Position numbers and translations under genes: made by a program. From a virus (Duplodnaviria; Caudoviricetes): a stretch of DNA of 64,000 bases. The notes beneath the pieces were generated by a model. That model was not told where the DNA came from and did no database searches. It saw only the letters and a program-made list of their open reading frames with translations. The stretch lies in IMG/VR virus record IMGVR_UViG_3300011116_001007; one strand, given 5' to 3'. This document shows, piece after piece, positions 1,100-48,464 of this stretch (position 1 is its first letter; the number at the start of each line of letters is the position of its first letter).

Positions 1100-3085
1100 T
1101 TATTTTTTGCGGATGCCAGCTAAATTTTGCATGCGATTGATATCTTCGTTAAAATGCTGTGATTGCATTTTGGCCAGTTCGGCTGCAGGGACATTCTTTT
1201 GAAATGTTGTTGTGGGTGTACCATTCACATCCTGCTTGTGCATGTAATCTCCGGTGCCGGTCGCAGGATTTGTCGCTATAGTAACATCGCTGTAGTTACG
1301 GTTGGCCTGACCGTTTTTGGCTGCGGTGGTATCACGTGAGATTGTGCTTATGTTTGTGTTTAGATCTGGGCGAGTAGGCGGCGTTGCCTGTTTGTAAGAA
1401 TTGGTTGGTGCATGGTATTGCATCGTGGAGCCATCCTGCATGGGCATGGTTGCACTGCCCCATTTGAATCCGTCATCCATGGTGTCACCCGTGTCAGTTT
1501 CTTTTACTGAAGTTTTCCTTGGCTGACTGGCAGGTGTTCCGGCATTATATCCACCTTGACGATATCGATTCGCAATACCTGACAAGGTATCTCCTTTGTC
1601 AACCACAGCAAAAGTACCATTGGGCAGTTTGATTTGCTGCCCAGGATAGATACGATCAGGATTGGCTATTTTATTTGCTTGAGCTATGTCTTGCCACAAT
1701 GGTGCTGTTGTTTTTGATGCGGTTGTACCACCGGCCGCCGGTGCATTTTGTTTTGCTGCCCATGCTCTAGCACGATCTATTGTGGCTTGATCAATGCGAC
1801 CTTTACTTCCACCAGTGATTTCGCCATTATCACCGGCACCGTTGCCCATGGTCATGCTCATACGCACTGGCTGTGTTTTACCAGTGGATGATACTGCGTT
1901 GCCTGCTGGCACTGAGTTAGCTGCTGGTTCAGACTGGCGGTACGCTGGATTTATTACATATTGCCACGTAGTGCCGGCAGGCAGTCTGTTAGGATTGCTT
2001 GGGTCAGCTGCTGCACCAGATGCACCATCTCCAGCTTTTTTGCTATACTCGCCATTGACTTGCCCTGCTGGCAATATCACACTTGGCGGTGGGTATTCTG
2101 TGTTACTATTACTGCCGCCTGTGTTGGGTACTGAAAATTCTTCGCCATTGGCACCCTTATAAACGGTTGGCGCCGCAAATGGGTCTGGTAGATTGTTCAT
2201 CTTTGTTTGCCAACGGTTGATGTGGTTTCTTACGGCTGCTTCTTCTTCACTGTCCAGCGGTTTTATTTCCTGACCAGGCTTGAGGTTTTTGCCAAAGCGG
2301 TCCCAATTTTTCATGATATCCGGGCCATCATCGGTGTTGTTGGACATCGACCCAGCAACATCAGCAGGAGAAGGATAAGCATCGGCGGTTTCCATGGGCT
2401 GCATCATGTTATCATAATTGGCATTGGGGTTGGCTGTTGCTGGGCGTGTGTCTAGTCTAGGAGTTTCTTTGCCAGTTCCTGTCGCTGGCCTGCTGTCTAA
2501 GTAATTGGGTTTTTGTGTCAACGGTGTTGTGTGCATTTGGGGCGTTTCATTGCCTGTTCCTGTTGCCACTGGATGATTGATATAATCAGTTTCTGCTCGA
2601 CCTACCAGCTTTGTGAGTGCGTTGAGATTTTTTGTAAGTTCAGGATTTTGAAATGCTTTCATGCCTTTGTTAAAAGTTCCAGACACATCCACATCGCCTT
2701 TGGGATTCAAAGCCATTGAATTTTTAACTGCGGCCGGATCAGGAGCAGCCATGCCGCGTTCAGCAGCAGTTGAATACATGTTCTTGACATAATCTGTAGT
2801 GGGCATTGATCCTAGACTGCCAGGTGGCAACTCATTGGCGTCTTCCGCTAAATTCTGCTGACCATACATGTCAAGAATTTGATCAACGTAAAAACTATAA
2901 AAGCCGCGGCGGCCGTTGTATTCTCTGTCTCCCAACACTCGCTTTAGTGCCAGCACAGCGTCACTCACTGTTGGACCTTGCATCACTCGTAATGCGTCAG
3001 TGACAAGTGAGTCAACTCTTTGCGAGTTTTCTGTCACATTGCGTGCAGATCTTTTGGGGTTGGTAAAAAAATCGTTGATGATCAT
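1100..3085 (-). CDS. LysM-domain virion-associated protein
   Basis: LWQDIAQANKIANPDRIYPGQQIKLP and VDKGDTLSGIANRY LysM motifs; low-complexity linkers; C-terminal EDINRMQNLAGI; TAAATA 7 nt upstream. Confidence 0.75.
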   Translation of the reverse strand: MIINDFFTNPKRSARNVTENSQRVDSLVTDALRVMQGPTVSDAVLALKRVLGDREYNGRRGFYSFYVDQILDMYGQQNLAEDANELPPGSLGSMPTTDYVKNMYSTAAERGMAAPDPAAVKNSMALNPKGDVDVSGTFNKGMKAFQNPELTKNLNALTKLVGRAETDYINHPVATGTGNETPQMHTTPLTQKPNYLDSRPATGTGKETPRLDTRPATANPNANYDNMMQPMETADAYPSPADVAGSMSNNTDDGPDIMKNWDRFGKNLKPGQEIKPLDSEEEAAVRNHINRWQTKMNNLPDPFAAPTVYKGANGEEFSVPNTGGSNSNTEYPPPSVILPAGQVNGEYSKKAGDGASGAAADPSNPNRLPAGTTWQYVINPAYRQSEPAANSVPAGNAVSSTGKTQPVRMSMTMGNGAGDNGEITGGSKGRIDQATIDRARAWAAKQNAPAAGGTTASKTTAPLWQDIAQANKIANPDRIYPGQQIKLPNGTFAVVDKGDTLSGIANRYRQGGYNAGTPASQPRKTSVKETDTGDTMDDGFKWGSATMPMQDGSTMQYHAPTNSYKQATPPTRPDLNTNISTISRDTTAAKNGQANRNYSDVTIATNPATGTGDYMHKQDVNGTPTTTFQKNVPAAELAKMQSQHFNEDINRMQNLAGIRKK

Positions 3086-3092
3086 GATGTTT

Positions 3093-3098
3093 TATTTA
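3093..3098 (-). promoter_or_regulatory. TAAATA late-promoter motif (representative; also 4174, 5669, 6874, 11309, 12266, 13068, 14051, 20133, 21044, 24837, 28875, 28930, 33651, 43475, 48470 on minus; 24815, 28985, 29806, 43519, 63751 on plus)
   Basis: Recurring hexamer directly upstream of gene starts; resembles the T4 late consensus TATAAATA. Confidence 0.75.
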
Positions 3099-3100
3099 CC

Positions 3101-3124
3101 AAAAAAAAGAGCCTTGCGGCTCTT
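3101..3124 (-). terminator. Intrinsic terminator
   Basis: AAGAGCC-GCAA-GGCTCTT followed by a T run on the minus strand. Confidence 0.8.
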
Positions 3125-3193
3125 AGTGCTGGTTACGAGTTCCAGCAGCCTCTCAATCTTGAGGTCGGTTTAAATGGGGTTTTACCCAGACAA

Positions 3194-4126
3194 TCACTTG
3201 CCCAATAGGCCGTTAACCTTGATTTCAACAGCATCTAGACGAGCTTCAATGGCATCCAGTTCTGGGTCAGCAGATGTGGCAATTGCTTCTTCGACTTGTT
3301 GAACCACTTCGGCAGCAACTTGTTCAACACCTGTTGCAGCAGCAATAATATCAATAACTGCGTCAACCACTTGCTGTACCACTTCTGGTGCTGGCGCAGC
3401 AGCTGGTGGATAGAAAGTGTATACTTTGCCCGAAGCTGGAATAACAGCGGTACCACCTGCATCAGCCACACTAATGTGATAGATTCCATCGTGACTGTCA
3501 CCACTGGTAACAATGCCAGAAGTCACGTCTGCTTCTGGAGCAAACCAGGTGTAACCACTAGTGATCAACAGCGTATCTTCCCACTGTGCAGCACTCATGT
3601 TGCCTTGATACAACCATACTCGCTCATTGCCTGGCGCACAGATATTTTGATTTGCTACAACATGTCCTACGGACACAGGCAGCGGTGCGTCAGCAACTGC
3701 GGCTATGATAGCTTCAGTGATGGCCACTGGGTCAATAACAACTTCTGGCTGTGCGGTAACAACTGCGGCAACTGCGGCAGCAATAATGTCAGCAACTTCT
3801 GGGTGATCCACTGGATCTGCTTCCACGTGTGCTGCAACAACATCAGTCACAATGTCGGCTGCTGCTGGCACTTCTGCGCTGGGCGATAGTGCAACCACTT
3901 GTTCAACTGTGACAGGGGCAGCATCGGCTGGTGCTGCAACAATAGCTTCAATGTGGCTTTGAGTCTTTTCAGCAATCATTTGGTTGACCTGGGATTCAAC
4001 AGCAGTCAATCTCATGTCAAGTTGGTCAATGGTAGCAGGTGCTACTGTGTCAATTGTGGTGCCGGTCAGTGTGGCCAATTTGGCTTCAACTGCTTGCAGG
4101 CGTAAGGCTAGGTCTTCAAATCTCAT
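3194..4126 (-). CDS. Acidic Ala/Val/Pro-rich protein with terminal coiled coils
   Basis: Start re-assigned to MRFEDL (AAGGAG SD upstream); LQAVEAKL and IEARLDAVE heptads. Confidence 0.7.
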   Translation of the reverse strand: MRFEDLALRLQAVEAKLATLTGTTIDTVAPATIDQLDMRLTAVESQVNQMIAEKTQSHIEAIVAAPADAAPVTVEQVVALSPSAEVPAAADIVTDVVAAHVEADPVDHPEVADIIAAAVAAVVTAQPEVVIDPVAITEAIIAAVADAPLPVSVGHVVANQNICAPGNERVWLYQGNMSAAQWEDTLLITSGYTWFAPEADVTSGIVTSGDSHDGIYHISVADAGGTAVIPASGKVYTFYPPAAAPAPEVVQQVVDAVIDIIAAATGVEQVAAEVVQQVEEAIATSADPELDAIEARLDAVEIKVNGLLGK

Positions 4127-4202
4127 GGGTTGCTCCTTTGGGTTATTGGGTTTGTGCCACCATGGCACACAAGTATTTAAAGACATTACCGTTACACTAA
4201 TA

Positions 4203-4913
4203 TTACGTCCAATATTTGCTATTATCTAAACTGTCCCAGTATGTTTTATTATTGCGATTGATAAAATTCTTAACCAAGTATCGGGCCATGCCCATGTAGC
4301 CCATTTTTTTAAACCTGCGTGAATCTTGGCCAAGATGATGTCGGACAATTCTAAACTTTCTTGGACTGTACTTTCTAGACAAAAAGTAGTCTTCGCTTGT
4401 GGTCAGCTGTTCGGGAAATCCGCCATATTCTTCAAATCGATCCCTACGTGTGAGCATAAAAGCACCAACGGCAAATGGTGAGAAATATTTCAATGTGTGA
4501 TTTATAGTGTTAAAAATAGTAAACCCAAACTTTGCTCTTATGTCATTGTCATAGCACTTGATGTTCAATCCAACAAGATCAAGGTTCATTGATTCAATTT
4601 TATTGACAGCATCATGGATCACATCGTATTTAAAAAAACGAACATCAGCGTCAATGAATAAGATGTAGGGAGTAGTAACTAATCTTGCCCCATTGTTCTT
4701 GGCCACTGAAACAGGTCCTCCCTCAATGATCTCAACATTCAATTCCCAACTGTTATCACGTATAACTTGTCTGGTGTTATCCGTAGAACAATCAGCAATA
4801 ATGACTCTAGTATCACCTATGTTTTGTGAGCGTAATGAATCTAACAAATGATGAATATAATTTTCTTCATTCTTGCAAGGCACAACTATGGTAATTTTAT
4901 CACTTAATTTCAT
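4203..4913 (-). CDS. Glycosyltransferase family 2
   Basis: ITIVVPCKNEE, IIADCST, ILFIDADV, SEDYFLS motifs; start MKLSDK after AAGGAC. Confidence 0.9.
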   Translation of the reverse strand: MKLSDKITIVVPCKNEENYIHHLLDSLRSQNIGDTRVIIADCSTDNTRQVIRDNSWELNVEIIEGGPVSVAKNNGARLVTTPYILFIDADVRFFKYDVIHDAVNKIESMNLDLVGLNIKCYDNDIRAKFGFTIFNTINHTLKYFSPFAVGAFMLTRRDRFEEYGGFPEQLTTSEDYFLSRKYSPRKFRIVRHHLGQDSRRFKKMGYMGMARYLVKNFINRNNKTYWDSLDNSKYWT

Positions 4914-5664
4914 TGTCCTTCTCCCGGGTCCATGTGATGATTTCCCAACGACCGTCGTGATGTTCAACCAGTGCTGTGCATGATTCCACCCAGTCGCCGT
5001 CGTTCATGTATCGAACACCATCTATATCTTTGATCTCGGCATGGTGTATGTGGCCGCAGATAACCCCATCATATCCGCGTTTCTTACAGTAAGCGGCAAG
5101 ATTCTTTTCAAAGTGGAATATAAAATCTACTGCTTTCTTTACTCTTGCTTTGAGATATTGACTAAGACTAAAGTACCCAAAACCCATGCGATGGCGTAGC
5201 CAATTGAATTTGCTATTAACTGATAAAATGACATCATATGCTTTGTCTCCTAAAAAACTTATCCAAGGTGCCAATCTAGTTATACCGTCAAACAAGTCTC
5301 CGTGTACCACAAGATAATGTCGACCGTCTGCACCTATATGTTCCGTTTGATTGTGTATCTCAACCAGGCCAAAACTGAACCCATATGGAATCATGGGTCT
5401 TAAAAATTCGTCGTGATTACCTGCAATATAAACAACACGAGTGCCGCGTTTAGCATGACCGAGAACACGACGGACCACATTAGTGTGGCTTTGTTTCCAG
5501 CGCCATTTGTTTTGTTGGATTCTCCAGGCATCAATTATATCTCCCACAAGGTATAAAGTGTCACAGGTGTTGTGTTTGAGGAAATTGTTGAGTCGGTCTG
5601 CTTGACAATCCCTTGTGCCAAGATGCACATCGGAGATAAAGATACTGCGATATGTTTTCTCCAT
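4900..5664 (-). CDS. LpxH-like metallophosphoesterase (UDP-2,3-diacylglucosamine hydrolase family)
   Basis: ISDVHLG, LVGDIID, IAGNHDE, VHGDLFD, CGHIHHA, NDGDWVESCTAL motifs. Confidence 0.85.
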   Translation of the reverse strand: MEKTYRSIFISDVHLGTRDCQADRLNNFLKHNTCDTLYLVGDIIDAWRIQQNKWRWKQSHTNVVRRVLGHAKRGTRVVYIAGNHDEFLRPMIPYGFSFGLVEIHNQTEHIGADGRHYLVVHGDLFDGITRLAPWISFLGDKAYDVILSVNSKFNWLRHRMGFGYFSLSQYLKARVKKAVDFIFHFEKNLAAYCKKRGYDGVICGHIHHAEIKDIDGVRYMNDGDWVESCTALVEHHDGRWEIITWTREKDNEIK

Positions 5665-5705
5665 GCTGTATTTACAAAGATGATTGTTACAACAGCATTA
5701 CAGTA

Positions 5706-6365
5706 TCAATACACAGGTTGTTTGACCAGTTGATTCACAAAGCTCAGCAGCAATTGATGATGGCGCCGTTCATGCCAGTGCGGTTTCATCCAACTCCAGC
5801 CGTTGTACCAGAACTTTTCACTTTCGGGGTGACAGCCTATCAGGCCTATGCGGCCCTGCATGATGGCCATGGCATCGCCATTGGCGTATGTGGCAACAGT
5901 TTTGAATCGTTTTGGATTGCCTACCAACGCACACCCGTCATAAAAAAACATCTTTTCTTCGCGGCCGCGCCAGGTCACATCAAGTCCTTTGGCATGCGGC
6001 CGTCGAGTGTCTGTGCCGGGACGCCGGATGTATTGTGCGGCATCCACACCGTCAAGTATATCAAAGTAATGACTGCCGGCCCAGTAAGCACCCATGCAGA
6101 TGCCCAGATAGTAACCGCCTTTTTGCACGAAGTCTATCACTCGATCGCCATTGTTGCGGAACAAGCGATAGAAGCTGTCTGAGTCTCCTATGCCGCCAGG
6201 AAACGCCACGATGTCCACGTCATCAAAGAAACAATCTTCCAAGACATTTTTTCCAAACATCTTGAAGTTATACTGTGGTGACAACGCCTGCATCATACCA
6301 TTGACACTTTGCACTGAACATTTGGGATCGGCTACAAAAAGTGCTATGGTTTTGCGGACTGTCAT
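5706..6365 (-). CDS. BPL_N / class I glutamine amidotransferase-like protein
   Basis: FPGGIGDSD, YLGICMGAY (nucleophile Cys) and GCHPE (His-x-Glu). Confidence 0.75.
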   Translation of the reverse strand: MTVRKTIALFVADPKCSVQSVNGMMQALSPQYNFKMFGKNVLEDCFFDDVDIVAFPGGIGDSDSFYRLFRNNGDRVIDFVQKGGYYLGICMGAYWAGSHYFDILDGVDAAQYIRRPGTDTRRPHAKGLDVTWRGREEKMFFYDGCALVGNPKRFKTVATYANGDAMAIMQGRIGLIGCHPESEKFWYNGWSWMKPHWHERRHHQLLLSFVNQLVKQPVY

Positions 6366-6868
6366 GATAGGTCAATGATAGGAATTGGGCCGTCAAATGG
6401 CCTACTGTTTACCACAGTTTTGAGTTTGAACAACATGTTCTGGCTGCTGATACGTCGCATGCCCAAGCCCAGTTGTGTTTCGGGATCATAAGCCCATACT
6501 TGTGTGTTGGGTTCTACCTGTGCCAGCTGATCAGCAATGCCGTTTAATTTCTTTAGACTTTGATCTATGGCATGTGGATTGATACCACGTGTGCGTGTGC
6601 GATCCACAGCATGATCGTCTATTGCCACAGTCAGCTGAGGAAAGTGTAGATTGCCAATTATGGTTTCGTTGGTCTTTTTGCGCTTGCCACTTTTCATGTT
6701 GGCCATCCAGTGGGCTAGTTGTGCTGCCCTGCCCGAGTGATTTTTAGCAAATTTGCGTAAGTTGCTCACACTGGATTTAGTGGGCACATGATGGCGTTTT
6801 GAATCACCTTTGTCTTCAGGATGTCGACCATCAGCAAAGTTTTCGGTAATAAATTCTCTTGCTCGCAT
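6362..6868 (-). CDS. Hypothetical virion (head) protein
   Basis: Start re-assigned to MRAREFITENFADG, 5 nt after TAAATA. Confidence 0.65.
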   Translation of the reverse strand: MRAREFITENFADGRHPEDKGDSKRHHVPTKSSVSNLRKFAKNHSGRAAQLAHWMANMKSGKRKKTNETIIGNLHFPQLTVAIDDHAVDRTRTRGINPHAIDQSLKKLNGIADQLAQVEPNTQVWAYDPETQLGLGMRRISSQNMLFKLKTVVNSRPFDGPIPIIDLS

Positions 6869-6911
6869 ATGGGTATTTAGCGTGTGGTCAATCAGCCGAA
6901 TTAGAGCTATT

Positions 6912-9900
6912 TTACTGGGCTTGACGCACACTGTAGTCAGCAGGGTTGAGTGTTATGCCAGTGTCGTTGCTGGTTTGTTGTACCCATTGACGACCTTCTG
7001 CCCAGGCCGCAGCTTGTGTGGCAGCATCCAACGGGAACATGCTCACTCCATCACTACGTCGATACACTTCCCACTGGGGCGCGGCTGCTGGCTGCGATGT
7101 ATACTGTGCAACATCTGGCTCAATGTCTTGCACTCCAGGAATTGGAGTAGGTGTCCGACGGTTAGCAGCATGTTCTGCATCAGCGGCCATGCTGGCTGCT
7201 GCTATTGCATTATAGCGTTGACGAGCTAGATCCAAGGTGCTGCCTGGGATGGGTGCTCGACGAACACCAAACGCTGCTGTGGCCTGCTGCGAATTTAATG
7301 TATGCGGACCCATGCTTCTATATTGATTCAAGAATTCTAAAGCTGCTGCATCATTGGCCGCTTGGAATGTTTCTAAGGGGCTGCTGTCCTCTCGGTCGTA
7401 AATCTCGTAAGTGACTGTGTCTGCATCAGCGGGTACTTCAGCAGGCACAGGAACCACTTCAAACGGTCCGCGAGCAGCCATATTAAGTGGCGGTAGCCAA
7501 TGGGCTTGCACCCATGCTAGTGCTGCTGCGTTGGCATCTGCTTGCACATTTCTATTCCAGAAAGTATGCACAACATCTCCGTCGTCGGCAACAATGTTCC
7601 ATTGCACACTACCGGCTTCGGGTGCTGATGCAGGTGCTGCAAACTGCGTGGTATCCACAATCATGTAATCAGCAGCATTTGCATTTTCTCGAGCAGCCCA
7701 GGCCGACATCACAGAACGAAGTTGGGCTTGGCTATAGCCGTCCCCTAGGGTAAATCTAAACAAGTAGTCTGGTGCAGGTCCTGATGTTCCGCTGCCGTAG
7801 CTGTAGACTCGAGGATCATCACGTCGCACTATGGCCAGTTGACCGTTGGGGTCATTGGGTCTGCCACGGCCTTGGGGATGTGATGCTGTGGTACTGGCTC
7901 CTGCTGCGGGCTCATCCAGTCTGGTCACAGTCAGTGCATCATCATGAAATCTCCAGTTGGGCTGCTGTTTTATGGCCTGCTTCTTGGCATCTACAGGGTC
8001 AGCGGCAATCACTTCTACCACGCCGCCACCCAATTCAGGCTTCAATGACACTCTCCATCGATGACCATTCACAATGTCCTCACCAGACTTCTTGGCCTTG
8101 CGGTCGGCTTGTGCTTGCCGCACAAAACTCTTTAGCGCAGCAGCAGGTAGTTCGCCTGCGGCATACTTGGCAAATACAGCCAGGGGATCTTTTTCATCTT
8201 TGGGTGCCAATATCTTGTATAGTTTTTTCAGATACTCTTGTCTATACGCTTCAGGATCTAATGCAGCACTCATGGCCACTGTGAATCTCATGAGAGTGTT
8301 TTCAATCTTGTCAAAGTTGTCGTCCAACCAGTCTCCGCCGGGGCTACGAAACTCAATGTGCCCATCCTTGGTGTTGATACTGGTGTATTTTTCTGTTGAG
8401 CCCGAGTGTATGGCTTTACTAGCCAAAGCACCCATGTGCCCTTTCATCTTGTCCAACAAATATTTTGCTTCATAAGGCCGTTGACGCACATGATCACGCA
8501 CTTTGCCCATGGCACTCTTGGCGTAGGAGTTACCTGCCCGCCCAAACTGCTCTAACACATATTCGTCGCCCATCAGCAGGGCCAGCTTTACAAAATCCAG
8601 TCGATTCTGGCTGTAATTGGGCACTGAGATATTGATGTGTAGCCCAGTAGAATCATTGGTGTAGCAGCCCATGCGATTGGCCCAGGCTTTGACCTTGTTC
8701 AAGTCACTCATGATGTCATCTATAGGCAATGGTGGGCTCACAAACTCCAGGCCTGAATCTTGTGGGTCATCCGGTTCCAAACTGCCATCGGGTTCTACCA
8801 CATAGAAGTTTTTGCCCGGCGCAGGACGCTCCACACTGCTGGAATGATACCCTGAAGATGCCTTTACAGGACGACCCACCGCCCGACTGAAATCGTCTGC
8901 TATATCTTCAACGCTGGTGCCACCAGCAAGACTGCTGGTATAGTGTGGCCAATGTATAATTCCATTATAACGATGATAGATATCACTCATGTGGCCCAGG
9001 CCAGAGTCACCCAACCATTCTTCAAAATTGTCATTTTCGTAGAACTCATCGCGGGACTGTTCCAATGCATCATCATAGAAAGGTTGTAGTTGTTCAGTAA
9101 CAATCATGTCCGCAGCCAGTTGATATTCTTTTTTACCAAGCTCGTCCTCTGATTCTAGATCCAACAACTCTCTGATGCTATCTTCGTCAACATTTTCTCG
9201 GATGTAATCGTAGATGAATGTTTTAGCATCTGAATCCCAGCGAGTATCAAACTGTTCCACTTGCCAGTCGCCGTAATCATCCAGCATGCGATCAACCAAC
9301 TCCTGGGCATTTCTGCGACCGTTGTAGTCACCATCATAGAAAAAATCTTGAATATCTCTAGGGCTGCTGGCACGTTCATCAGAATCAAAGTCGGGTTCTA
9401 GTTCATCATCTTCGGATGAAGTGTTGGGCACAATCATTTCAAATTCCATACCAGCCAGGGCACCTGTCTTGGCTGCTTCTCGACGCAGATTCTTGCCACC
9501 CATGTTGATTTCAAACAGATCCTGATCTTCAAACAATCTCAATTCTTGTCGCAGGCTTGCTACCAATTTATTTTCAGCCACATTGTAGGTAGGGTCAGTT
9601 TTTTGACGCTTCATGCCTTTGGGCTGGTTAGGATCAACAGGATCAATGTCAGTGGTTGATAACCCTAATTTTTCTAACTTATTGATGTACTTGTGTTCAG
9701 TATCTTCGTCACCAAAGCTCACAATAGTGCTGGGTGGCCCTTTGCCAAATTCGCTGGGATCAGCACGATCCAGATTGGCAATGTGCTTGCCCAACTTGTA
9801 CCAGTCATACACGTCACTCACATCTACTCGTACTGTGCCTTTGGGCATGGTGGGTTTGAATTCAGGCCCCAATGGCTCATTGAGGTCACGATACTTGCCC

Positions 9901-11300
9901 TGACCCTGCGACGGTTGCGGCATAGAACTTTCACGTAGATTCACAGACTTGATCAACAACTTGGGCTCTCCGTTGGGCCCTGTTTGCAATGCCATCTTGT
10001 TGGCTTCTCGGCCTGTTTGTCCCGGACGCACATCCACACTCAAGGCCATGGCATACTGTGGCATGGCCGCTTCCTTTTTGTTCTTGGGAATGTATCCTGA
10101 CGCACCTTCGCCCAGGGATTCTGCGGCAAAGTATTCAGGATGTGACGCAGCAAAATCTCGCATGATGATGCCAGCTCTGGCATTGGCATCATTTTCGTAT
10201 TCACTGCCAGTTTCTCCAGCATCCAGTGGCAGGCCACCTTGCGTCTGATGTTGATCACAATGCACCAGTTCATGTGCTATGGTGCGGAACACATCCAGGA
10301 TATGGCGATTGGGCAAGCTCACATTGAGAGTGTTTGATTCTGGCTCATAACGTCCAAAGCTGTGATTGCCTTCACTCCATTCAGGATCTGTGTGTATGAC
10401 TATTTTGGGAGCAGGATCAATGCCCAGTTCCGTGACCACATGCTGGATAAAATCATTCACTGCCTGATTGTCCTCGTCGCCTTTTTCACTCAAGAACATT
10501 CGGGTACTGGCACTGACCCCATCTGGAGTTATTGTGACATCTTCTGCGATGCGATGGCCAAACCCATAGGTCACACGACCTTTTTCTCTGTTCTTTTCCA
10601 CTAGACTCATGGCATGATCTTGTGCTGCCACGTGAGCATCTTTCAGCAGTCGGATGCAGCCTTGATCGCGCAGCACTTTGAACGTGATGTTTTCGCAACC
10701 AAATTCCCCATGCTGTTCCAGCCCAATTTGGCGCATGGCTTTGATCTTGTTCCACAGGGTGGACATCATATCAGCATTGCCAGACTCAACAGCAGCGTGT
10801 ATTCTAGCGTCTAGATCAGCTGCTTTGTCACGCACACATGAGTCATCAATCTGTGCTCGTCGGCGGCGCGGCACTTGTATCCATTTGCCATCCTTGACTG
10901 AATAAATGCCCTGACTCACATGCGGCTGGCCTGCAGGTTGCACATACAATTCCACATCAGCACCGCCAATGGTCAAATTGTGTTCGTCGTTGTATTGGTA
11001 TTTTTTAGCGTTGAACAGTTCCTGATACACAGGATCATCAGGCATGTCCACTATCAAATGTAGATCAATGTCGCTGTGGTCAGTATAGTTGTATGCTGCA
11101 TTTGACCCCGACAGTGTGATGTCTTGCACTCGGAGATTGTCCACTCCCAAGAATTCACGGAAGTCTTCTGCAATTGCCAGCAGTTTGTCACGAACATCTG
11201 GCAGCAGATGTTCATTTGAACCCCACAACCGACGGTTAAGTCGATTATGGTATTTTACAGTGTCGCTCAGGCGGAATTGATCTAGTTCATTGAAGTTCAT
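6912..11300 (-). CDS. Multidomain protein: pol-beta-type nucleotidyltransferase + HExxH metallopeptidase-like domain + COOH-NH2 ligase (amidoligase) + C-terminal repeats
   Basis: LSGSNAAYNYTDHSDIDLH; RTIAHELVH; GMEFEM, VEPDGSL, GLEFVSPPL, STGLHINIS, KYTSIN, IEFRSPGG. Confidence 0.8.
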   Translation of the reverse strand: MNFNELDQFRLSDTVKYHNRLNRRLWGSNEHLLPDVRDKLLAIAEDFREFLGVDNLRVQDITLSGSNAAYNYTDHSDIDLHLIVDMPDDPVYQELFNAKKYQYNDEHNLTIGGADVELYVQPAGQPHVSQGIYSVKDGKWIQVPRRRRAQIDDSCVRDKAADLDARIHAAVESGNADMMSTLWNKIKAMRQIGLEQHGEFGCENITFKVLRDQGCIRLLKDAHVAAQDHAMSLVEKNREKGRVTYGFGHRIAEDVTITPDGVSASTRMFLSEKGDEDNQAVNDFIQHVVTELGIDPAPKIVIHTDPEWSEGNHSFGRYEPESNTLNVSLPNRHILDVFRTIAHELVHCDQHQTQGGLPLDAGETGSEYENDANARAGIIMRDFAASHPEYFAAESLGEGASGYIPKNKKEAAMPQYAMALSVDVRPGQTGREANKMALQTGPNGEPKLLIKSVNLRESSMPQPSQGQGKYRDLNEPLGPEFKPTMPKGTVRVDVSDVYDWYKLGKHIANLDRADPSEFGKGPPSTIVSFGDEDTEHKYINKLEKLGLSTTDIDPVDPNQPKGMKRQKTDPTYNVAENKLVASLRQELRLFEDQDLFEINMGGKNLRREAAKTGALAGMEFEMIVPNTSSEDDELEPDFDSDERASSPRDIQDFFYDGDYNGRRNAQELVDRMLDDYGDWQVEQFDTRWDSDAKTFIYDYIRENVDEDSIRELLDLESEDELGKKEYQLAADMIVTEQLQPFYDDALEQSRDEFYENDNFEEWLGDSGLGHMSDIYHRYNGIIHWPHYTSSLAGGTSVEDIADDFSRAVGRPVKASSGYHSSSVERPAPGKNFYVVEPDGSLEPDDPQDSGLEFVSPPLPIDDIMSDLNKVKAWANRMGCYTNDSTGLHINISVPNYSQNRLDFVKLALLMGDEYVLEQFGRAGNSYAKSAMGKVRDHVRQRPYEAKYLLDKMKGHMGALASKAIHSGSTEKYTSINTKDGHIEFRSPGGDWLDDNFDKIENTLMRFTVAMSAALDPEAYRQEYLKKLYKILAPKDEKDPLAVFAKYAAGELPAAALKSFVRQAQADRKAKKSGEDIVNGHRWRVSLKPELGGGVVEVIAADPVDAKKQAIKQQPNWRFHDDALTVTRLDEPAAGASTTASHPQGRGRPNDPNGQLAIVRRDDPRVYSYGSGTSGPAPDYLFRFTLGDGYSQAQLRSVMSAWAARENANAADYMIVDTTQFAAPASAPEAGSVQWNIVADDGDVVHTFWNRNVQADANAAALAWVQAHWLPPLNMAARGPFEVVPVPAEVPADADTVTYEIYDREDSSPLETFQAANDAAALEFLNQYRSMGPHTLNSQQATAAFGVRRAPIPGSTLDLARQRYNAIAAASMAADAEHAANRRTPTPIPGVQDIEPDVAQYTSQPAAAPQWEVYRRSDGVSMFPLDAATQAAAWAEGRQWVQQTSNDTGITLNPADYSVRQAQ

Positions 11301-11324
11301 ACGAACTATATTTACCGCAAACCT

Positions 11325-12308: not shown

Positions 12309-13061
12309 TTAGACAGATGTCTTTTCCTGAACGTAGTCTTCGTTGACAGGTTGATTTTCACGGGCTTGGTAACTGGCCGTCATGCCGCCTACAAAATTCT
12401 GTGCGGCAGTTTCGGCTATGGTTCCCATTGCGGTGTTCAGCATCCCGGCTACATTTTTAGCCAAGGCCGGGTTGGTCTGTGTAGCAGGATACAAACTCAT
12501 AACCAGAGCTACCTTACGTTTTTCGTTCAATTGCGGCCACGCTGTGCGTATTTCAGTGGCAGATTGCATGCCTGGCCCAAATTCCTCAGTGGGCAAGTAG
12601 GCCATGTAAGCATGTTGGGTCATGGGCTGTATGTTGTCCTCGTTGCCAGCAAGATATTGCAGATAATCACTCACTGGCTGGCCTTTGTTTGGGCCACGTT
12701 TGGCCCTGGGCAATTGTCCTGTGGCAGGATCCAGTGCAGCAGGCAATGGCGGTTGATTCTGATCCTTGTCGCTTCTGACAAAAATCAACACAGTATCATT
12801 GGGATTTTTAATCCTTCTGGCAATTGCCGGTTCCATAGCATTGAATTGTCTAGACACTTCGACAAAATCTCTAGGTGGCACTCCAGATACTTGTGCTAAT
12901 TTTTGTTTTATTTTGAATGGAAACGGTCTTGAACTGGTGTCGTTGGTAGCTGCCACAACCACATCGGCACCAGGGAATGTTGCCTTTGCGGCTTGATAAA
13001 GTGATAAGTGCCCTGGGTGAAAAGGGTGGAAGCCGCCAGAAATTAGTACTAACTGTTTCAT
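12309..13061 (-). CDS. Cytidylyltransferase-like (HIGH-motif) protein
   Basis: ISGGFHPFHPGHLSLY and SATEIRTAW motifs. Confidence 0.75.
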   Translation of the reverse strand: MKQLVLISGGFHPFHPGHLSLYQAAKATFPGADVVVAATNDTSSRPFPFKIKQKLAQVSGVPPRDFVEVSRQFNAMEPAIARRIKNPNDTVLIFVRSDKDQNQPPLPAALDPATGQLPRAKRGPNKGQPVSDYLQYLAGNEDNIQPMTQHAYMAYLPTEEFGPGMQSATEIRTAWPQLNEKRKVALVMSLYPATQTNPALAKNVAGMLNTAMGTIAETAAQNFVGGMTASYQARENQPVNEDYVQEKTSV

Positions 13062-13075
13062 AGCTAGTATTTAGT

Positions 13076-14049: not shown

Positions 14050-14691
14050 TTATTTAGCCTGTATTGGCACAGTCTTGCGAACAATTCCCGGCAGAACGAG
14101 ATTCAACATCAGCGCATCATTGATGTCATGATGATCGATAAAATTCCAGTCATTGGTGTAAAAATGCTTGTAATGAAACATCCGCCCGTCATCGCCAATC
14201 AATCGAGACTGCAAGCCCGGCGTGATCCTAAAATAGTCCGGGCGGTTGGCAAAAAATTGTATAAATCTATCGCGCTCAATGTCGTTGAAATATTTGCCTC
14301 TGAGATAAGTTCTGTATTGATGTTGTGTTTTTTCAAGCACAACCACATCCTTTGCTCGATCAACCACACATTGATTGTACTTGGCTGTTCTTGTTATGTA
14401 GGACAAGGCCGCCAAGTCTTTTAACAGTGTTAAATTATTGGTGTAAACATATACCCAACTGCCGTAGATGATAGATTTATGTGCATCTTTGTCGGCTGCC
14501 AACAGCATGGCCACTTCGCCCACATCAGAATACTCGGGCATACGCTCCACAAAGTCTTTTATATCTTTTGTATTGGAATATTTGAATAATCTACGCCATC
14601 TGCCAACTTCTTCCAATCTAAAATCTATGGCATACTCGTACTGATCATAGTACAAACTGCCTCGGGACACGTATTTGAAGTCAATCATCAA
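14050..14691 (-). CDS. Hypothetical protein
   Basis: 213-aa ORF coupled to clpA by overlap. Confidence 0.65.
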   Translation of the reverse strand: MMIDFKYVSRGSLYYDQYEYAIDFRLEEVGRWRRLFKYSNTKDIKDFVERMPEYSDVGEVAMLLAADKDAHKSIIYGSWVYVYTNNLTLLKDLAALSYITRTAKYNQCVVDRAKDVVVLEKTQHQYRTYLRGKYFNDIERDRFIQFFANRPDYFRITPGLQSRLIGDDGRMFHYKHFYTNDWNFIDHHDINDALMLNLVLPGIVRKTVPIQAK

Positions 14692-16949
14692 GTGCCTGCT
14701 GCTGGGAATCTAATGATGCCATCTACATCTACCACAGGAATCACATGTGCTTGAGTTTCAAAATGCACTTGATCATCCACTAGTGTTGCAGTGATATCAC
14801 AATCGGTCAGTCGATCAAACAGGATCCGCTTGCTCAATGGCACACGGATCAACTGATCAATCTTGCGGCTTAGGGGTCTTGCACCCATTTTGTTATCATA
14901 GCCTTTTTCAGCCAGGTAATCAATCACGGGCTCTGTCAACACCAAGCGTATGCGTTTGCTTTCCAAACTGGTCTTGAGCTCATCCACAAATTTAAGCACA
15001 ATCTTTTTAATGGCCAAAGTATCCAGTTTCACAAACTTACACACTTGATCAATACGATTACGCATTTCGGGCTTGAAGAACTCTTTCATGGCACGGTCTT
15101 CTTCTCCGGTCTTTTCTTGTGAGCCAAAGCCGATGGCATTGCTTTCGCTGTCCCTGGAACCCAGATTTGAAGTCATGATAATGATGCAGTTCTTCACATT
15201 GGCCTTTTTGCCATTGCTGCTGGTCAACACACCTTCGTCCAGCATCTGCAGCAAGATGTTGCTGACATCTGGATGTGCCTTTTCAATTTCGTCAAACAAG
15301 ATCACAGAAAAGGGATTCTTGCTGATGTCGGCGATCAACTTGCCGCCGCCTATGTTGCCGTCCTCAAATCCCACATAGCCTGGAGGTGCACCAATCAAGC
15401 CTGACACACTGTGACGTTCTTGATACTCACTCATGTCGTATTTCAACAATGGCATGTCCAGGTGCTGGCTCAACAGTCTGGCCAATTCAGTTTTGCCTGT
15501 GCCAGTGGGCCCCGTAAACAAGAAACTGGCCATGGGCCGTCGTTCGTTGCCAATACCTGAGAAGTTGATGTACACACGATCCAACACAGCATCCACCGCA
15601 GCGTCTTGCCCGTAGAGATGTTGTTTGATATTGCTTTCAAGATCCACAATCTTGGCTGATCGCTCATTCTGCAATCGATCTGTGGGCACACCTGTCACAC
15701 GGGCCACTTGTGCTTCAATCAATTCTTTAGTGATGGTCGCGGTGCCTGCATCTCGAACACGTTCTCGGGCACAGGCTGCATCCAACAGATCAATACACTT
15801 GTCAGGATTCTTTCGATCGTGAATGTATCGATTGCCCAGTTCCACAGCAGTGGTCATTGCCGCTGTGTCGATCATGACATTGTGGAATGCTTCCAGTCTG
15901 GGTGAGAGCCCGATCAGGATCTTTTCAGTGGTCGCAGTGTCCGGTTCGTCAATCGACAACCTGTAGAAACGGCGCATGAGAGCACGATCCTTTTCGAAGC
16001 TCTCGTAAAATTCTTCCCAGGTGGTACTGGCCACAACCTTGAGTGTGCCACGTGTGATGGCTGGTTTCAGCATGTTGGCAAAGTCTAGACTGCTTCCCGA
16101 ACTGCCTGCACCTGCACCTTTCATGGTGTGTGCTTCGTCCACAAACAAGATGCAGTTCTTTTTGGCTTCCAAGGCTGCCAGTACCACCTTGAGTTTTTCT
16201 TCAAACTCGCCGCGGTATTTGCTTCCGGCCAGCAAACTACCAATTTCCAAACTCCATACTTCGTAGCCTTTGAGGAACTCAGGCACACGCCCTGCATTGA
16301 TTTCCTGTGCTAGTCCTTCCACAATGCAGGTCTTGCCCACACCAGGATCGCCTACCATGAGCACGTTGGCTTTGAAACGACGTGCCAGCACAGCAATCAT
16401 TTCTTCCAGTTCAGTTGCACGACCAATCAGCGGTTCCAATTGATTGGCAGCGGCCTGTGCAGTGAGACTGGTACAGTATTCGGTCAGTACTTCGTCTGCT
16501 TGATTGGATGTCATTTTGCTGTCTACCTGTGTGTGATTTTTCTGATAGAATTCCACAAACTCAGACTTCTTCATCCCGTACTTGAGCAAAAAGTAGTGTG
16601 CATGGCTGTTGGTTTCGGCCATGATGCTGAGATACACATCCAACAGGTTCATGGCTCTGCGGCCAGTGAACATGACCTGCACGTTGGCTCGATTGAACAC
16701 ACGTTCCAGGCTTTGTGTTTTTTTGGGCTGTACATCACCTGTCTTGACCAGGTTCATCAGACTGTTCAAGTATGCATCCAGCTCTTGATCCAGCATGTCT
16801 ATTTCCACGCCAAACTGTTCAACCAGTCTACGGAAGTGTCCTTGGCGCAGCATGGCCAATAACAAGTGTTCGGTCATCACATATTCGTGACTTTTTTCTT
16901 TAGCTATTTTTACAGCGTTGTCAACAATGCTTTCGATTTCGTGTGCCAT
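14688..16949 (-). CDS. clpA: ATP-dependent Clp protease ATP-binding subunit ClpA
   Basis: Clp N domain; two AAA modules GDPGVGKT and GPTGTGKT; KYRGEFEE, DEIEKAHPDV, GARPL. Confidence 0.95.
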   Translation of the reverse strand: MAHEIESIVDNAVKIAKEKSHEYVMTEHLLLAMLRQGHFRRLVEQFGVEIDMLDQELDAYLNSLMNLVKTGDVQPKKTQSLERVFNRANVQVMFTGRRAMNLLDVYLSIMAETNSHAHYFLLKYGMKKSEFVEFYQKNHTQVDSKMTSNQADEVLTEYCTSLTAQAAANQLEPLIGRATELEEMIAVLARRFKANVLMVGDPGVGKTCIVEGLAQEINAGRVPEFLKGYEVWSLEIGSLLAGSKYRGEFEEKLKVVLAALEAKKNCILFVDEAHTMKGAGAGSSGSSLDFANMLKPAITRGTLKVVASTTWEEFYESFEKDRALMRRFYRLSIDEPDTATTEKILIGLSPRLEAFHNVMIDTAAMTTAVELGNRYIHDRKNPDKCIDLLDAACARERVRDAGTATITKELIEAQVARVTGVPTDRLQNERSAKIVDLESNIKQHLYGQDAAVDAVLDRVYINFSGIGNERRPMASFLFTGPTGTGKTELARLLSQHLDMPLLKYDMSEYQERHSVSGLIGAPPGYVGFEDGNIGGGKLIADISKNPFSVILFDEIEKAHPDVSNILLQMLDEGVLTSSNGKKANVKNCIIIMTSNLGSRDSESNAIGFGSQEKTGEEDRAMKEFFKPEMRNRIDQVCKFVKLDTLAIKKIVLKFVDELKTSLESKRIRLVLTEPVIDYLAEKGYDNKMGARPLSRKIDQLIRVPLSKRILFDRLTDCDITATLVDDQVHFETQAHVIPVVDVDGIIRFPAAGT

Positions 16950-17021
16950 TAATGGTCCTTGTGTGGATAACAGTTTGTATTATACTACTTAACTTGAATT
17001 GACGCAATCATTCTGGTAGTA

Positions 17022-17807
17022 TTATTGGTGTTGTTGGATGGCATCTAACAATGCATCGGGAATGGCATCAGGAATTCGAGCCTGCATGCGTACCAAAATG
17101 TCGCCAGGCGGTCCATCTTTGCTGACCAAGCCCTGACCTTTCAATCGCATGATCGAACCTGGTTGTGTGCGCGGTGGCACAGTCATGCTCAGTGTACTGC
17201 CAGTGGGTGTGTGTATTTCAACATCTGAGCCCAGGATCAGTTTCCAAATGTCCACTTTGCGTTCGCAATGCAGGTTGAATCCATCTCTATGCCAAACTGG
17301 ATCAGGATTGATTCTAAACTGCACAATCAGATCCATACCGCCAGGTGCTATGCCACCGTATTGCACATTGTCGCCGTCTTGAATGGATCGAGGAATGTCA
17401 ATCTGCACAGTGGTAGTGCCCACAGCAGTGCTCACGCTCACAGTTTTTGCACCACCGCGTATGGCATCGGCTAGCGATATCCACAAGTTCATGGTGACCT
17501 GACGGCGCTGTTGCTGTTGTTGGGCATGCATCTGCTGGCCAAACATTTGGCTGAATATGTTGTTGAGATCAAACGGATTGCCCGGAAATCCACCACCAAA
17601 ATGCTGTGTGTGTTGCTGCGGATTGTTGTAGGCTGCTCGCTTTTGATCGTCGCTGAGTGTTTCGTAAGCAGCTTGGATTTGTTGGAATTTGGCAGTGTCA
17701 CCACCTTTGTCAGGATGATGCTGACTGGCCAACCGACGATAGGCCTTTTTTATGTCATCAGCAGATGCTGTGCGCGGTACACCCAGGGTGTCATAATAAT
17801 CACTCAT
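17022..17807 (-). CDS. dnaJ: DnaJ/CbpA-type co-chaperone (no zinc finger)
   Basis: DYYDTLGV...HHPDKGG J domain with HPD; DnaJ C-terminal domain. Confidence 0.9.
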
Positions 17808-22571: not shown

Positions 22572-22574
22572 AAC

Positions 22575-26228: not shown

Positions 26229-26392
26229 TGCATTCGAAATGACATACTGATAGGGATCATTCTGGTGGATCTACGCACTTTGCGTTGTTGACGTTCAGAT
26301 GTTTGCGGCGTTTCAGGACCTGCTGGTGCATCAAGTCGGATGGGCGCACCGGGCAGTGGACGTATAGGGCGGCCATTGGCAGTGCGTTTCAT
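26225..26392 (-). CDS. Small basic hypothetical protein (55 aa, not in ORF track)
   Basis: MKRTANGRPIRPLPG...; ATGA overlaps at both ends. Confidence 0.5.
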   Translation of the reverse strand: MKRTANGRPIRPLPGAPIRLDAPAGPETPQTSERQQRKVRRSTRMIPISMSFRMQ

Positions 26393-28289: not shown

Positions 28290-28290
28290 T

Positions 28291-28869: not shown

Positions 28870-29028
28870 GTGATTATTTATGTGATTAGGATCATAGCTT
28901 GTGATCTCTAGAAACAGTAGCCTGGTCTGTATTTAGTGCCCATATTTCCAATATCACTCAGCACATTTATTAAAATTTGCGGCCGTAAATAGGTTGGTCC
29001 GAGAGGACATTTACTAGGAGAATTTGAT

Positions 29029-29766
29029 TTGAGTAGAAACCGCGCCGTCAAAGCACAAAACAAACGTATGATTCAATCTGTAGAAAACACCATCAGTTTT
29101 AACCCAGTATCTAAGGCGACACCACGTCGCATAGACTTGATCCCTCGCACACGAAATCAAGAACGCTTGGTGTTGGCACTACAAGATAACGATCAACATA
29201 TTGTGGTCACTGCAGGACCTGCAGGCACAGGTAAAACATACTTGGCCATGCAGGCAGCAGTAAAAGCACTTAGAGAAGGAGCATGTGATCGATTGGTAAT
29301 GACTCGCCCAGCAGTGGGAGTAGAAGGGGAACAACACGGTTTCCTCCCCGGCAACCTAGTGGCCAAAATGGAACCATGGACCCGTCCTTTGTTAGACGTC
29401 ATGCGTGAATATTATCGCGCCCAGGACATCGTAGCCATGATAGAAGATCAGGTTGTGGAAATTGCGCCTCTGGCATTCATGCGCGGCCGCACCTTTAAAA
29501 ACTCGTGGATAATAGCAGACGAAATGCAAAATGCAACTCCTGCCCAGGTGAAGATGTTGATGACCCGCATTGGACAAAATTCCAAAATCGTCATAACCGG
29601 CGATGTAGAACAAGCTGATCGAGCAACTGGAGACAACGGTCTATTGGACCTGTGTGAACGATTGCAAAAACGACCAGTGGAGGGAATAGCTGTGTGTGCC
29701 TTAGAAGCTCGTGACGTTCAACGTCACAAGATCATAGGGTCGGTACTAAAATTATACACAAATTAG
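29029..29766 (+). CDS. phoH: PhoH-family ATPase
   Basis: GPAGTGKT, GFLPG, PLAFMRGRT, DEMQN, ITGDVEQAD; TTG start after AGGAG. Confidence 0.93.
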   Translation: MSRNRAVKAQNKRMIQSVENTISFNPVSKATPRRIDLIPRTRNQERLVLALQDNDQHIVVTAGPAGTGKTYLAMQAAVKALREGACDRLVMTRPAVGVEGEQHGFLPGNLVAKMEPWTRPLLDVMREYYRAQDIVAMIEDQVVEIAPLAFMRGRTFKNSWIIADEMQNATPAQVKMLMTRIGQNSKIVITGDVEQADRATGDNGLLDLCERLQKRPVEGIAVCALEARDVQRHKIIGSVLKLYTN

Positions 29767-32761: not shown

Positions 32762-33021
32762 TGATTGTTACCTAGATTTTTTGAATTTAAAATTGACCAC
32801 ATTTGCGTTTGGTCGCGCTCCAACTGTTGCTGTTCCAACCATTCTTGCTCAGGAGCATAAGTTGGACACCGCTTCAACATGTCTTCTAGTGCAAATTGTA
32901 TACGATATAAATCTTGTTTGCAACCCCAAGTGGTAAAACCGTCCATGTTAGGATCCGAAGTGGCAAAATAAATTCTTTGTAGTTTGCCAATGATCTCATC
33001 AGCATTCCAATTCTTTATCAT
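32758..33021 (-). CDS. Hypothetical protein
   Basis: 87-aa ORF, overlap-coupled. Confidence 0.6.
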   Translation of the reverse strand: MIKNWNADEIIGKLQRIYFATSDPNMDGFTTWGCKQDLYRIQFALEDMLKRCPTYAPEQEWLEQQQLERDQTQMWSILNSKNLGNNQ

Positions 33022-33422
33022 CAGTTGTGTTGCATGTATGTGGGTTTGGCCTCTACATGTATAGCAGTAGAGAATGTGTCGTCGGCTGGCGCCTCGTCAG
33101 ACACCATCATGATGTCTTTGGGATCCACTCTTCGCAAAGTGACCTTGCCCGATTCATCTTCTATGTCAATGCCTCGGGTCCAGCGGCCGTGCTCTACGCA
33201 CACCCATTGACCTTCAACAACGTCTTTTTGTTCAGGGCCCACAGCATACACTCGACCCCACCGCGGACGAATTCCGGTGCTTTTGCCATTGTCGCTGGGA
33301 ATAATAATACCACCAGTACTGAGACGCACATCAAATACCATTTCGCTCACAATCACAGATTCTCCCAATGGGCGAAGTTGACTGCGTTTTATTTCATGTG
33401 GTGCGTATGCTGCTTTGATCAT
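33021..33422 (-). CDS. groES: Co-chaperonin GroES-like
   Basis: LRPLGESVIV, STGGIIIP, GRVYAVGP, VEGQWV. Confidence 0.85.
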   Translation of the reverse strand: MIKAAYAPHEIKRSQLRPLGESVIVSEMVFDVRLSTGGIIIPSDNGKSTGIRPRWGRVYAVGPEQKDVVEGQWVCVEHGRWTRGIDIEDESGKVTLRRVDPKDIMMVSDEAPADDTFSTAIHVEAKPTYMQHN

Positions 33423-37347: not shown

Positions 37348-37359
37348 ATTGTTTGCAGG

Positions 37360-41265: not shown

Positions 41266-41269
41266 AATA

Positions 41270-43453: not shown

Positions 43454-43543
43454 AGATAGAGTGTCCTAGTGTAGTATTTACCAAAAAATTTTGCTTGCCC
43501 GTACAAGTGTCTACATGCTAAATACATAAAATTGGAGTATTAA

Positions 43544-46126: not shown

Positions 46127-46138
46127 TACAAATCTATA

Positions 46139-47605
46139 ATGCCAATAATATCTAGACCGGTAGGGTATACAAATTCATTACAAACACTCACGGTATATCC
46201 GTTGATTCCTGACGCTCAACTTACTGCACATCTCTGGGGCGGTGGTGGTGGTGGCGGCGGGAACGATTCTGGCCCCGGAGGCGCAGGAGGTGGTGGCGGG
46301 TTTTCGATTGCCACAATTGCTTGCAACACTGCTGATGTTATTACACTGGCAGTGGGCAGCGGCGGTGGTGGCGGGCTCAGCGGCGGCGGAGTAAGTGGAG
46401 GATCAGGAGGATCTAGCTATGTTGGGTATAGCGTATTCAACACAAGACAATTGGCTGGAACAAATGGATTGATTGCAGTGAGTTTACCTTACGCCTGGAG
46501 CAATTTCATGAACGCCTATGCTGTATGGAATGCCAATGGTGCTTACACGCTTGATGTCTCTACCACTATTTCTGTGCCATTCACTGGTGTATTTGTTTTG
46601 CAGACAGCATTTGATGACGATGGCACAGTATACATAGATGGGATTGCTGTGGCATCTTCCAGCGGAAGTTATAACGGTTCAAGAATTAACAATATTACAA
46701 TAACCAGCGGTTCTCATACTTTACGTATTGTAGGTTATAACTCCGGTGGAGGACCCGCTGGAGTGGCTGTATCGATCAACAGTGGGGCTAGTTTTTCAGG
46801 TGCTCCGGGCGGCAATTCAGGATCACGAGGTGCTAGCGGTAGTGGTGGTGGTGGCGGCGGGGCAACTGTTTTATTACAAAATGGGCTATTGCAGGGCGTG
46901 GCTGCCGGCGGCGGTGGCGGCGGCGGGGCAGGTAATCCTAGCCCAGGTGGCAGCAGTCCCGGACCCAACGGCCAAACTACCACAGGGTTCAATGGTGAAT
47001 CAGGAGCAGGTCATCCAGGTGACGGCGGCGCTGGCGGAGGTGGTGGCGGAGGATACAATGGCAGCACTGGCGGAGGTGGCAATGGTGGAGCATATGGCGG
47101 GTGGCCGGGTGCTAGCGATACTGGTGGACAAGCAGGAAACCCTGGCGCCAGCTGGAGTTTTGCCTATCCAAATGGATTTAATCCCAGTGGTCGAACACCC
47201 GGCGGACAGTCAGGAATCTCAGTACCAGCTGGAGTTGGACAAGGTGGGCGATCAAACGGCGAACGTGGGGGCAATGGATATGCAGTGATATACATGAATG
47301 TTCCTGGGGTGTTTGTAAATCAAGCTGGTACCTATTATGCTACCAAGGAAGTTTATGTGAATGATCAAGGCACTTGGAAAATCACAAATGCAATTTATAT
47401 CAAACAAAATGGGGCCTGGACCCAGGTGTCCGGCCAACAAACTACTAATTTTGAAACTATCAGCGGAGATTGGGGTATGGTTCCGCGGTCCAGTCCATAC
47501 GTTTACTCTCCACCACCGCAACCAAGTGGAGGTGGTGGACCAGGCAGGGGAGAAGGCAGCAGCGGCGTCGCTGGTGGCGGCTTTGGCGGTGGTGGCGGCG
47601 ACTAA
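46139..47605 (+). CDS. Glycine-rich tail-associated protein with an inserted PA14-like domain
   Basis: LWGGGGGGG and AAGGGGGGGAG glycine-rich motifs; [13 protein letters not shown] insert. Confidence 0.7.
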
Positions 47606-47922
47606 ACTGAAAAACTACTGCCGCAGCCGCAGGTGCTGACTGCATTGGGATTTTTTATCACAAAGCTGGCACCCATGGCATCTTCTTTGTAATCAATGTC
47701 TGATTCTTGTAGATATTGCATGCTCATGGCATCTACTACCACTCGCACTTCTTCGTAGTTGAAATCAAAATCATCTTCGTTTTGAATTTCATCAAACGTG
47801 AATCCATAACTGAATCCTGAACAACCGCCGCCTTGCACAAACACACGCAGCATGAGCGCAGGGTTGGCTTCTTCTGCGATCAGCTCACGCAGTTTGCTCA
47901 CAGCAGCAGGTTTGAGATTCAT
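47602..47922 (-). CDS. erpA: A-type Fe-S carrier ErpA/IscA
   Basis: [20 protein letters not shown]...[14 protein letters not shown]; TAATG coupling to the SOD gene. Confidence 0.9.
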
Positions 47923-48464
47923 TATAGTCTTTCGTTGCACACATCCCAATCAATGATCTTCCAGATATTGTTGAGATATGCTTCTTTGTCGCTTTGATAA
48001 TCCAGGGCCCAGGCATGTTCCCACCAGTCTACTAGCACACAGATGTCGGTGCGTACGGCATGATTGGCGATGGTCTTGATTGCTCCGCTGGTGCTGAGAT
48101 ACACCCATCCAGAGCCTTGTATTTTCATAGCAGTTTCTTTGAATGCTATTTTGAAATCTTCGTAGGTTTTAAAATGTTCTTCTATGAGTGCGAGTACTGC
48201 ACCACGTGGTCGATTGGCACCTTTGGGAGCCCTAAGCTGAGGGAAAAACTTATTGTGTAAAAAACTGCCAGCACGATTAAAATCTGCATTGCCTTCTCCT
48301 GCATTGTATCGCTTGGCATAGCCCTTGGCGAGATGTTCAAAATGGTAATCAATTGTGGCAGCACTCATCACCGGTGCCAGGTCCTTGGGACCATAAGGTA
48401 GTGGAGTAGTTTCTAGTTTGGCCGGTCTGGTGCTGGCTTCCAGTAAGTCTATGTGTTCACGCAT
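47922..48464 (-). CDS. Compact Fe/Mn superoxide dismutase
   Basis: LPY..LAP.MS..TIDYH, FLHNKFF, GSGWVYL, DWWEHAW (four metal ligands present). Confidence 0.85.

Follow-up and report, generated by a model that had tools for sequence, protein, structure and literature searches.

Here, we report that six late genes in a 64,000-nucleotide stretch of viral DNA (IMG/VR record IMGVR_UViG_3300011116_001007; the whole stretch is called the window below) probably encode internal head cargo, i.e., proteins that would be docked by a short N-terminal leader, some of them also by a scaffold-like (LAG) tail, and would then be cut after Glu by a homolog of the T4 protease gp21. Judged from its sequence, the window is DNA of a T4-related jumbo phage (~340 to 360 kb) of the Atu_ph07/PA5oct group. 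Nearly all window genes are on the minus strand, and IMG/VR relatives of 330 to 364 kb have 43 to 56 of the 90 window open reading frames (ORFs) in common with it (median identity, 57 to 63%). What the present analysis adds is a cross-check of the leader and LAG proteins against the virion proteomes of cultured phages.

An initial annotation of the window had pointed out six N-termini resembling capsid-targeting peptides (starts at 6868, 27762, 48464, 3085, 11300, and 26228), and all six were found at these coordinates on the minus strand. Leaders were sought with the pattern M[RKNIL]-hydrophobic-x-[ED]-[FILV], of which a strict form was also counted, in 2034 genes (window plus five relatives). 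The motif enrichment that had been proposed as a check was far above chance: 72 genes carried the leader, whereas internal positions predict 10.6 and column shuffles 16 (maximum, 29), and 49 carried the strict form (3.1 expected).

The best T4-like leader, which matches the T4 pattern at an offset of one residue, opens a protein of 168 amino acids (aa) (6362 to 6868; leader, 6842 to 6868) and has a clear I-T-E end. A basic NFADG module follows, and after T-N-E a second module of 100 aa, for which there was no Pfam match and DUF4258 was the only lead (score of 0.79, below the reliable range). The L/I-x-E end is also clear (L-L-E) in the Fe/Mn superoxide dismutase (SOD; 47922 to 48464), a single-domain protein whose phage-specific N-terminal extension holds a helical leader of a second class (48438 to 48464). 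PF02777 was above cut-off and PF00081 just below, and all four metal-binding residues (H, H, D, H) align with a solved Fe-SOD. Solved cellular SODs are without the extension; in 66 homologs of the phage protein, the leader is variable in length and sequence and has a hydrophobic-hydrophobic-Glu end before the conserved start.

The nucleotidyltransferase and the amidoligase, listed separately in the initial annotation, are parts of one 1462-aa polyprotein (6912 to 11300). Its leader is followed by a Pol-beta-like nucleotidyltransferase (aa ~6 to 233), a zincin-like HExxH module (aa ~273 to 395, with HExxH at aa 343), two small modules, the amidoligase (aa ~600 to 1040), and C-terminal repeats. 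Domain matches were Pfam PF12224 (above cut-off), phrog_36119, and NTP_transf_2 (weak), and those of the HExxH module were all below threshold (Tox-MPTase3, E of 0.13). The C-terminal ~390 aa (6912 to 8100, minus strand) consist of about four diverged repeats of ~50 aa.

A 661-aa LysM protein (1100 to 3085) has a leader, a shuffled module of ~65 aa (aa 17 to 81) between V-T-E and L-A-E joints, a low-complexity middle, LysM (aa 464 to 488), and a LAG tail after an F-N-E joint; a pattern search found no IMG/VR relative of it. The 457-aa protein (26389 to 27762), in which no enzyme was recognized, has a leader, roughly nine small modules, basic or rich in Cys, with V-A-E, L-N-E, L-D-E, and M-A-E joints, and a LAG tail (26464 to 26493), after which comes a short conserved terminal peptide common to relatives. 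The sixth protein is a Zn-dependent deaminase of 211 aa (25593 to 26228; HxE, PCxxC; PF00383 above cut-off) with a short leader and, after an L-D-E joint, a 50-aa module. Its leader is a collapsed form overlapping the domain's own first residues; among its homologs, 16 of 20 have the leader class, often longer and with an L-L-E end, and the other four have the deaminase as an internal module. Possible L/I-x-E cut sites lie at residues 3 to 5 of the leaders starting at 27762 and 11300, and V-T-E lies at residues 17 to 19 of the one starting at 3085.

Outside the six genes, an Ala/Val-rich 310-aa late gene (3194 to 4126, minus strand) also fits the leader pattern from its likely start at 4126 (ribosome-binding site; TAAATA at 4174 to 4179), a match that may be a coiled-coil false positive.

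Glu-ended linkers between domains had been read from a list of motifs, which proves nothing alone because the density of [LIV]xE is equal in leader proteins and others (observed/expected, 1.09 and 1.07); bulk density was therefore rejected as evidence. The linkers were borne out, however, at module boundaries. Hydrophobic-x-Glu was found within a few residues of internal homology boundaries between leader proteins in 42 of 69 and 43 of 73 cases, against nulls of 15 and 17 (maxima, 25 and 27), i.e., 60% versus 22% expected, the counts not being fully independent because modules are common to relatives. Control proteins had it at 7 to 9% of boundaries, the same as their own null. In the 168-aa protein, the NFADG module comes after the I-T-E of the leader, but in relatives it stands after five different x-x-E joints, at polyprotein C-termini; leader end and internal joint are therefore interchangeable.

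T4 gp21 cleaves after L/I-x-E (PMC9026906), and SPN3US gp245 cleaves after A-x-E (PMC10052503). The prohead protease gene that had been suggested as a check was located in three relatives (G002 to G004), as a PF03420 gp21-family protease with H/S/D motifs sited between portal and gp23; no such gene turned up in the G001 fragment or G005. The gp23 propeptide of the relatives contains xxE. Cutting of the precursors at most joints appears probable. The G005 contig (of L064; 342,865 bp, rated 99% complete) had no match to gp22 or gp23 and no significant match to gp21, and it is probably misassembled or incomplete.

The LAG tail is probably a copy of the scaffold end, since the scaffolds in the gp22 position end in hydrophobic-[KR]-[RK]-L-A-G-[LI] in every one of the 66 relatives examined (a strict regular expression matched 62); Atu_ph07 and PA5oct have the same scaffold end. 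Outside scaffolds, the motif matched 11 times in six gene sets; 8 matches lie no more than 30 residues from the C-terminus (p=2e-5), and 6 are in leader proteins (p=4e-6). All three LAG motifs described for window proteins exist, but a shared tail holds in part: in the 457-aa protein the motif lies 24 residues before the end, and with a scaffold-only matrix this was the sole tail above shuffles (score, 14.6; 95th percentile of shuffles, 13.0). Scores of the remaining tails are 8.7 (LysM protein; 1112 to 1141, 3 residues from the end) and 7.7, neither significant alone. Each window tail is preceded by an xxE site and so could be cut off, like the C-terminus of T4 Alt. Whether the tail would also act as a scaffold-mimic handle is, on sequence grounds, finely balanced. 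A non-scaffold protein, CpmB of SaPI1, reuses the conserved C-terminal peptide of the scaffold of staphylococcal phage 80alpha and thereby redirects capsid size; the analogy is with another phage group, and the effect proposed here would be cargo loading instead.

Virion proteins of Atu_ph07 (Table S5 of PMC6102473) were assigned to ORFs by mass, and the strict leader had been defined on freshwater phages before it was used on this phage. Products of 8 of 10 strict-leader ORFs and of 129 of the remaining 812 were in the virion (p=2e-5); because the ORF set includes spurious calls, the actual background is closer to 20%. One of the misses could not have been detected because its ORF is unannotated. 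A broader leader pattern (24 of 26) was not counted, as it was drawn after the table was seen. One strict-leader ORF of 139 aa (22449 to 22868, plus strand; locus L232) is absent from the RefSeq annotation of Atu_ph07.

Four Atu_ph07 leader proteins, gp53 (87 kDa, in a ~22-kDa slice), gp63, gp482, and gp483, run far below their predicted mass, and gp305 (27 kDa) is most abundant in gel slice 12 (~15 kDa). Internal joints, scored by a simple pattern, occur in 3 of 4 short-running leader proteins and are absent from 11 of 12 full-size ones, a comparison made post hoc. The Atu_ph07 proteins that start with LAG, gp111 and gp257, were detected in the virion; the scaffold went undetected, which its digestion would explain. 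In PA5oct, the LAG-type proteins gp281, gp249, and gp278 were flagged by electrospray ionization tandem mass spectrometry (ESI-MS/MS).

Of the five enzyme and LysM functions named as virion cargo by the initial annotation, three have homologs detected in virions of cultured relatives: SOD (PA5oct gp223, 36% identity, flagged by ESI-MS/MS), amidoligase (Atu_ph07 gp196, 14 peptides), and nucleotidyltransferase (ORF156 of cyanophage S-CREM2, which has its own I-S-E leader; PMC10665884). We consider it likely that the cargo is packaged. The companion claim, processed polyproteins, agrees with the module-boundary joints and the short-running jointed proteins but fits neither the single-domain SOD nor gp196, which runs at full size. 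The proteome of RsoM2USA was not informative because just ten gel bands were covered; at 171 to 215 kb (MG752970.1; loci L259 to L261), its genome has ~40 unannotated genes for proteins of ~200 aa, almost all of which begin with M[KR]LxE[IV]; no larger expansion of leader-tagged genes was seen.

These observations suggest the following mechanism. The leader would dock the precursor into the core of the assembling prohead, as its sequence and the virion data from relatives suggest, and the scaffold-like LAG peptide would probably be a second docking handle. By comparison with T4 and from the Atu_ph07 gel shifts, the gp21-family protease would then cut after Glu, strip leader and tail, and free the modules; one tag could load several proteins because the precursor is cut into modules after docking. 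Nucleotidyltransferase, amidoligase, deaminase, and SOD would leave with the DNA and serve in early host takeover, anti-defence, or oxidative protection, while small basic modules may remain behind as filler in the core or in DNA packing. With T4 IPI and Alt as the models, ejection of active enzymes is plausible, if slightly short of an even prospect. That T4-related jumbo phages have a general modular delivery system with two independent tags (leader and scaffold peptide), whose polyproteins, made of shuffled enzyme modules such as SOD, deaminase, nucleotidyltransferase, and amidoligase, are cut by the head protease and injected as an effector cocktail, is put forward tentatively.

Several points weigh against cargo that is tagged and cut in this way. 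The gp21 protease and the virion data come from relatives, none from the window's own phage. The gel shifts show a change in mass and do not map cut sites, and Atu_ph07 gp54 runs at full size despite two hydrophobic-x-Glu sites. Just 3 of 6 strict-leader genes of PA5oct are flagged by mass spectrometry (base rate, 20%), and the virion proteomes of relatives also hold enzymes that likely copurify, e.g., RNR and UvsX. A clean Glu site is missing from the leader of the window deaminase, as are Glu joints from the repeats that end the 1462-aa protein, and two of the three window LAG tails are not significant by themselves.

The packaged and cut proteins could instead be mainly core-building or DNA-packing filler, with enzymes that act in the particle (e.g., SOD against oxidants) or are passengers, not host effectors. 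The 457-aa protein, composed of small basic or Cys-rich modules only, would suit this, the gene in the gp68 (core) position has the same leader class, and the role of T4 IPII and IPIII is itself unresolved (PMC9026906). Filler would not account for the catalytic motifs retained in deaminase, nucleotidyltransferase, amidoligase, and SOD, or for module content that changes fast between close relatives, as expected of conflict effectors; we regard this explanation as rather unlikely.

The LAG tail might be a degradation or unfolding tag for a phage ClpA-type chaperone, or chance, and not a loading handle. It resembles the end of the ssrA tag, the window has ClpA and DnaJ genes, and two of the three window tails lie within the shuffle range. 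The same peptide also stands at the N-termini of the virion-detected proteins gp111 and gp257 of Atu_ph07 and gp281 of PA5oct, it is invariant at scaffold ends, and it usually comes after an xxE joint; this reading is improbable.

Leaders and joints might not be processing signals at all, MR/MK arising from ATGA coupling or leaderless late mRNA and xxE from recombination-prone acidic linkers in cytoplasmic fusions. MR/MK is partly a nucleotide effect, because 60 of the 72 leader genes start with ATGA (48% of other genes do), just 16 of the 72 have their own TAAATA, and [LIV]xE has no bulk enrichment. Column-shuffled N-termini nevertheless gave far fewer matches than were observed, synonymous variation at leader positions 5 and 6 indicates protein-level selection, and products of leader genes are strongly overrepresented in the virion of Atu_ph07, where the jointed ones run short; this explanation has little probability left. 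A very improbable alternative is release of the 1462-aa protein, as a classic polyvalent protein, by its own HExxH metallopeptidase (autoprocessing by such domains has been proposed; PMC5512222) and not by the head protease, as the same joints occur in the peptidase-free 457-aa, 168-aa, and deaminase proteins.

Judged by its motifs, the proposed cargo system would work like the T4 capsid-targeting system. T4 IPI to IPIII and Alt (PMC9026906) have an N-terminal tag of ~10 residues that includes a hydrophobic residue and closes with [LI]-x-E, a gp21-family protease, and late genes, and Alt is cut at both ends. T4 cargo is single-domain, whereas unrelated modules are chained here at internal cut-type joints; there are also two leader classes here, and a scaffold-like LAG peptide is undescribed for T4 cargo. 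Polyvalent proteins (PMC5512222; PMC7824862) are likewise large multienzyme late proteins with zincin-like HExxH and nucleotidyltransferase domains, proposed to be injected with the DNA. In the window, joined unrelated enzyme domains, an HExxH module, and a late context are combined in the 1462-aa protein only. Release by their own metallopeptidase is proposed for the polyvalent proteins, whereas the joints here suit the prohead protease and are also seen in proteins without a peptidase. Jumbo-phage head proteins of phiKZ and SPN3US are cut after x-x-Glu by a gp21 homolog (gp175/gp245; PMC10052503), but there long N-terminal propeptides are removed at A-x-E, and shuffled polyprotein strings and a short shared leader are unreported. 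In the literature searched (most subscription journals lay outside the search), we found no description of these leaders, joints, or LAG peptide, nor of cargo chained at head-protease joints or of a scaffold-derived tag.

Leader, scaffold-like tail, and xxE joints together would predict head cargo among the hundreds of hypothetical proteins of abundant freshwater jumbo phages; the same sequence rule would give the start and end of mature products and would point to unrecognized early effectors and anti-defence proteins. The old T4 question of what capsid-targeting tags bind becomes testable, and existing spectra can be re-searched because these tags are also present in Atu_ph07 and PA5oct, which can be cultured. 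The tags could also serve protein delivery with large capsids.

Late promoters had been assigned to the leader genes, and four have their own TAAATA 5 to 8 nt 5' of ATG, namely, those starting at 6868 (6874 to 6879), 48464 (48470 to 48475), 3085 (3093 to 3098), and 11300 (11309 to 11314). The genes starting at 27762 and 26228 lack their own TAAATA and are ATGA-coupled downstream members of a run headed by a TAAATA gene, so they are late only by operon; from these signals, late expression is predicted for all six, directly or through the operon head. That head gene (28291 to 28869, minus strand; TAAATA at 28875 to 28880) encodes a conserved virion protein (phrog_12928) with matches in PA5oct, XaC1, Atu_ph07, and 121Q-like jumbo phages. 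Next in the operon is a second conserved virion protein (27759 to 28364, minus strand; phrog_13138), the homolog of Atu_ph07 gp305, with an xAG tail (27765 to 27794) that is a lineage-specific variant and has a second copy ~20 aa earlier. A 55-aa ORF (26225 to 26392, minus strand) that overlaps both neighbors at ATGA is a probable coupled small gene. A sigma-70 scan of the operon did no better than chance. TAAATA of window late genes is mostly just 4 to 8 nt 5' of ATG, and a ribosome-binding site is absent, which suggests near-leaderless late mRNAs.

A cytidylyltransferase-like late protein (12309 to 13061, minus strand) with a small C-terminal module between I-A-E and V-N-E joints is probable further cargo; it lacks a leader, which its L034 homolog has. 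Cyanophage virions contain cytidylyltransferases (PMC10665884). Elsewhere in the window, an LpxH/PlcP-like metallophosphoesterase gene overlaps one for a family-2 glycosyltransferase (4203 to 5664, minus strand), and PhoH is encoded at 29068 to 29766. Host-like chaperone and translation genes (minus strand) lie at 14688 to 17807, 33021 to 33422, and 47602 to 48691; among them, ClpA, DnaJ, and Cpn10 were checked with Pfam, and the IscA-like and IF-1-like genes were named by sequence appearance. A tandem array at 49144 to 51349 (minus strand) holds about nine small paralogous genes, each ending F-x-L-[RK]-W.

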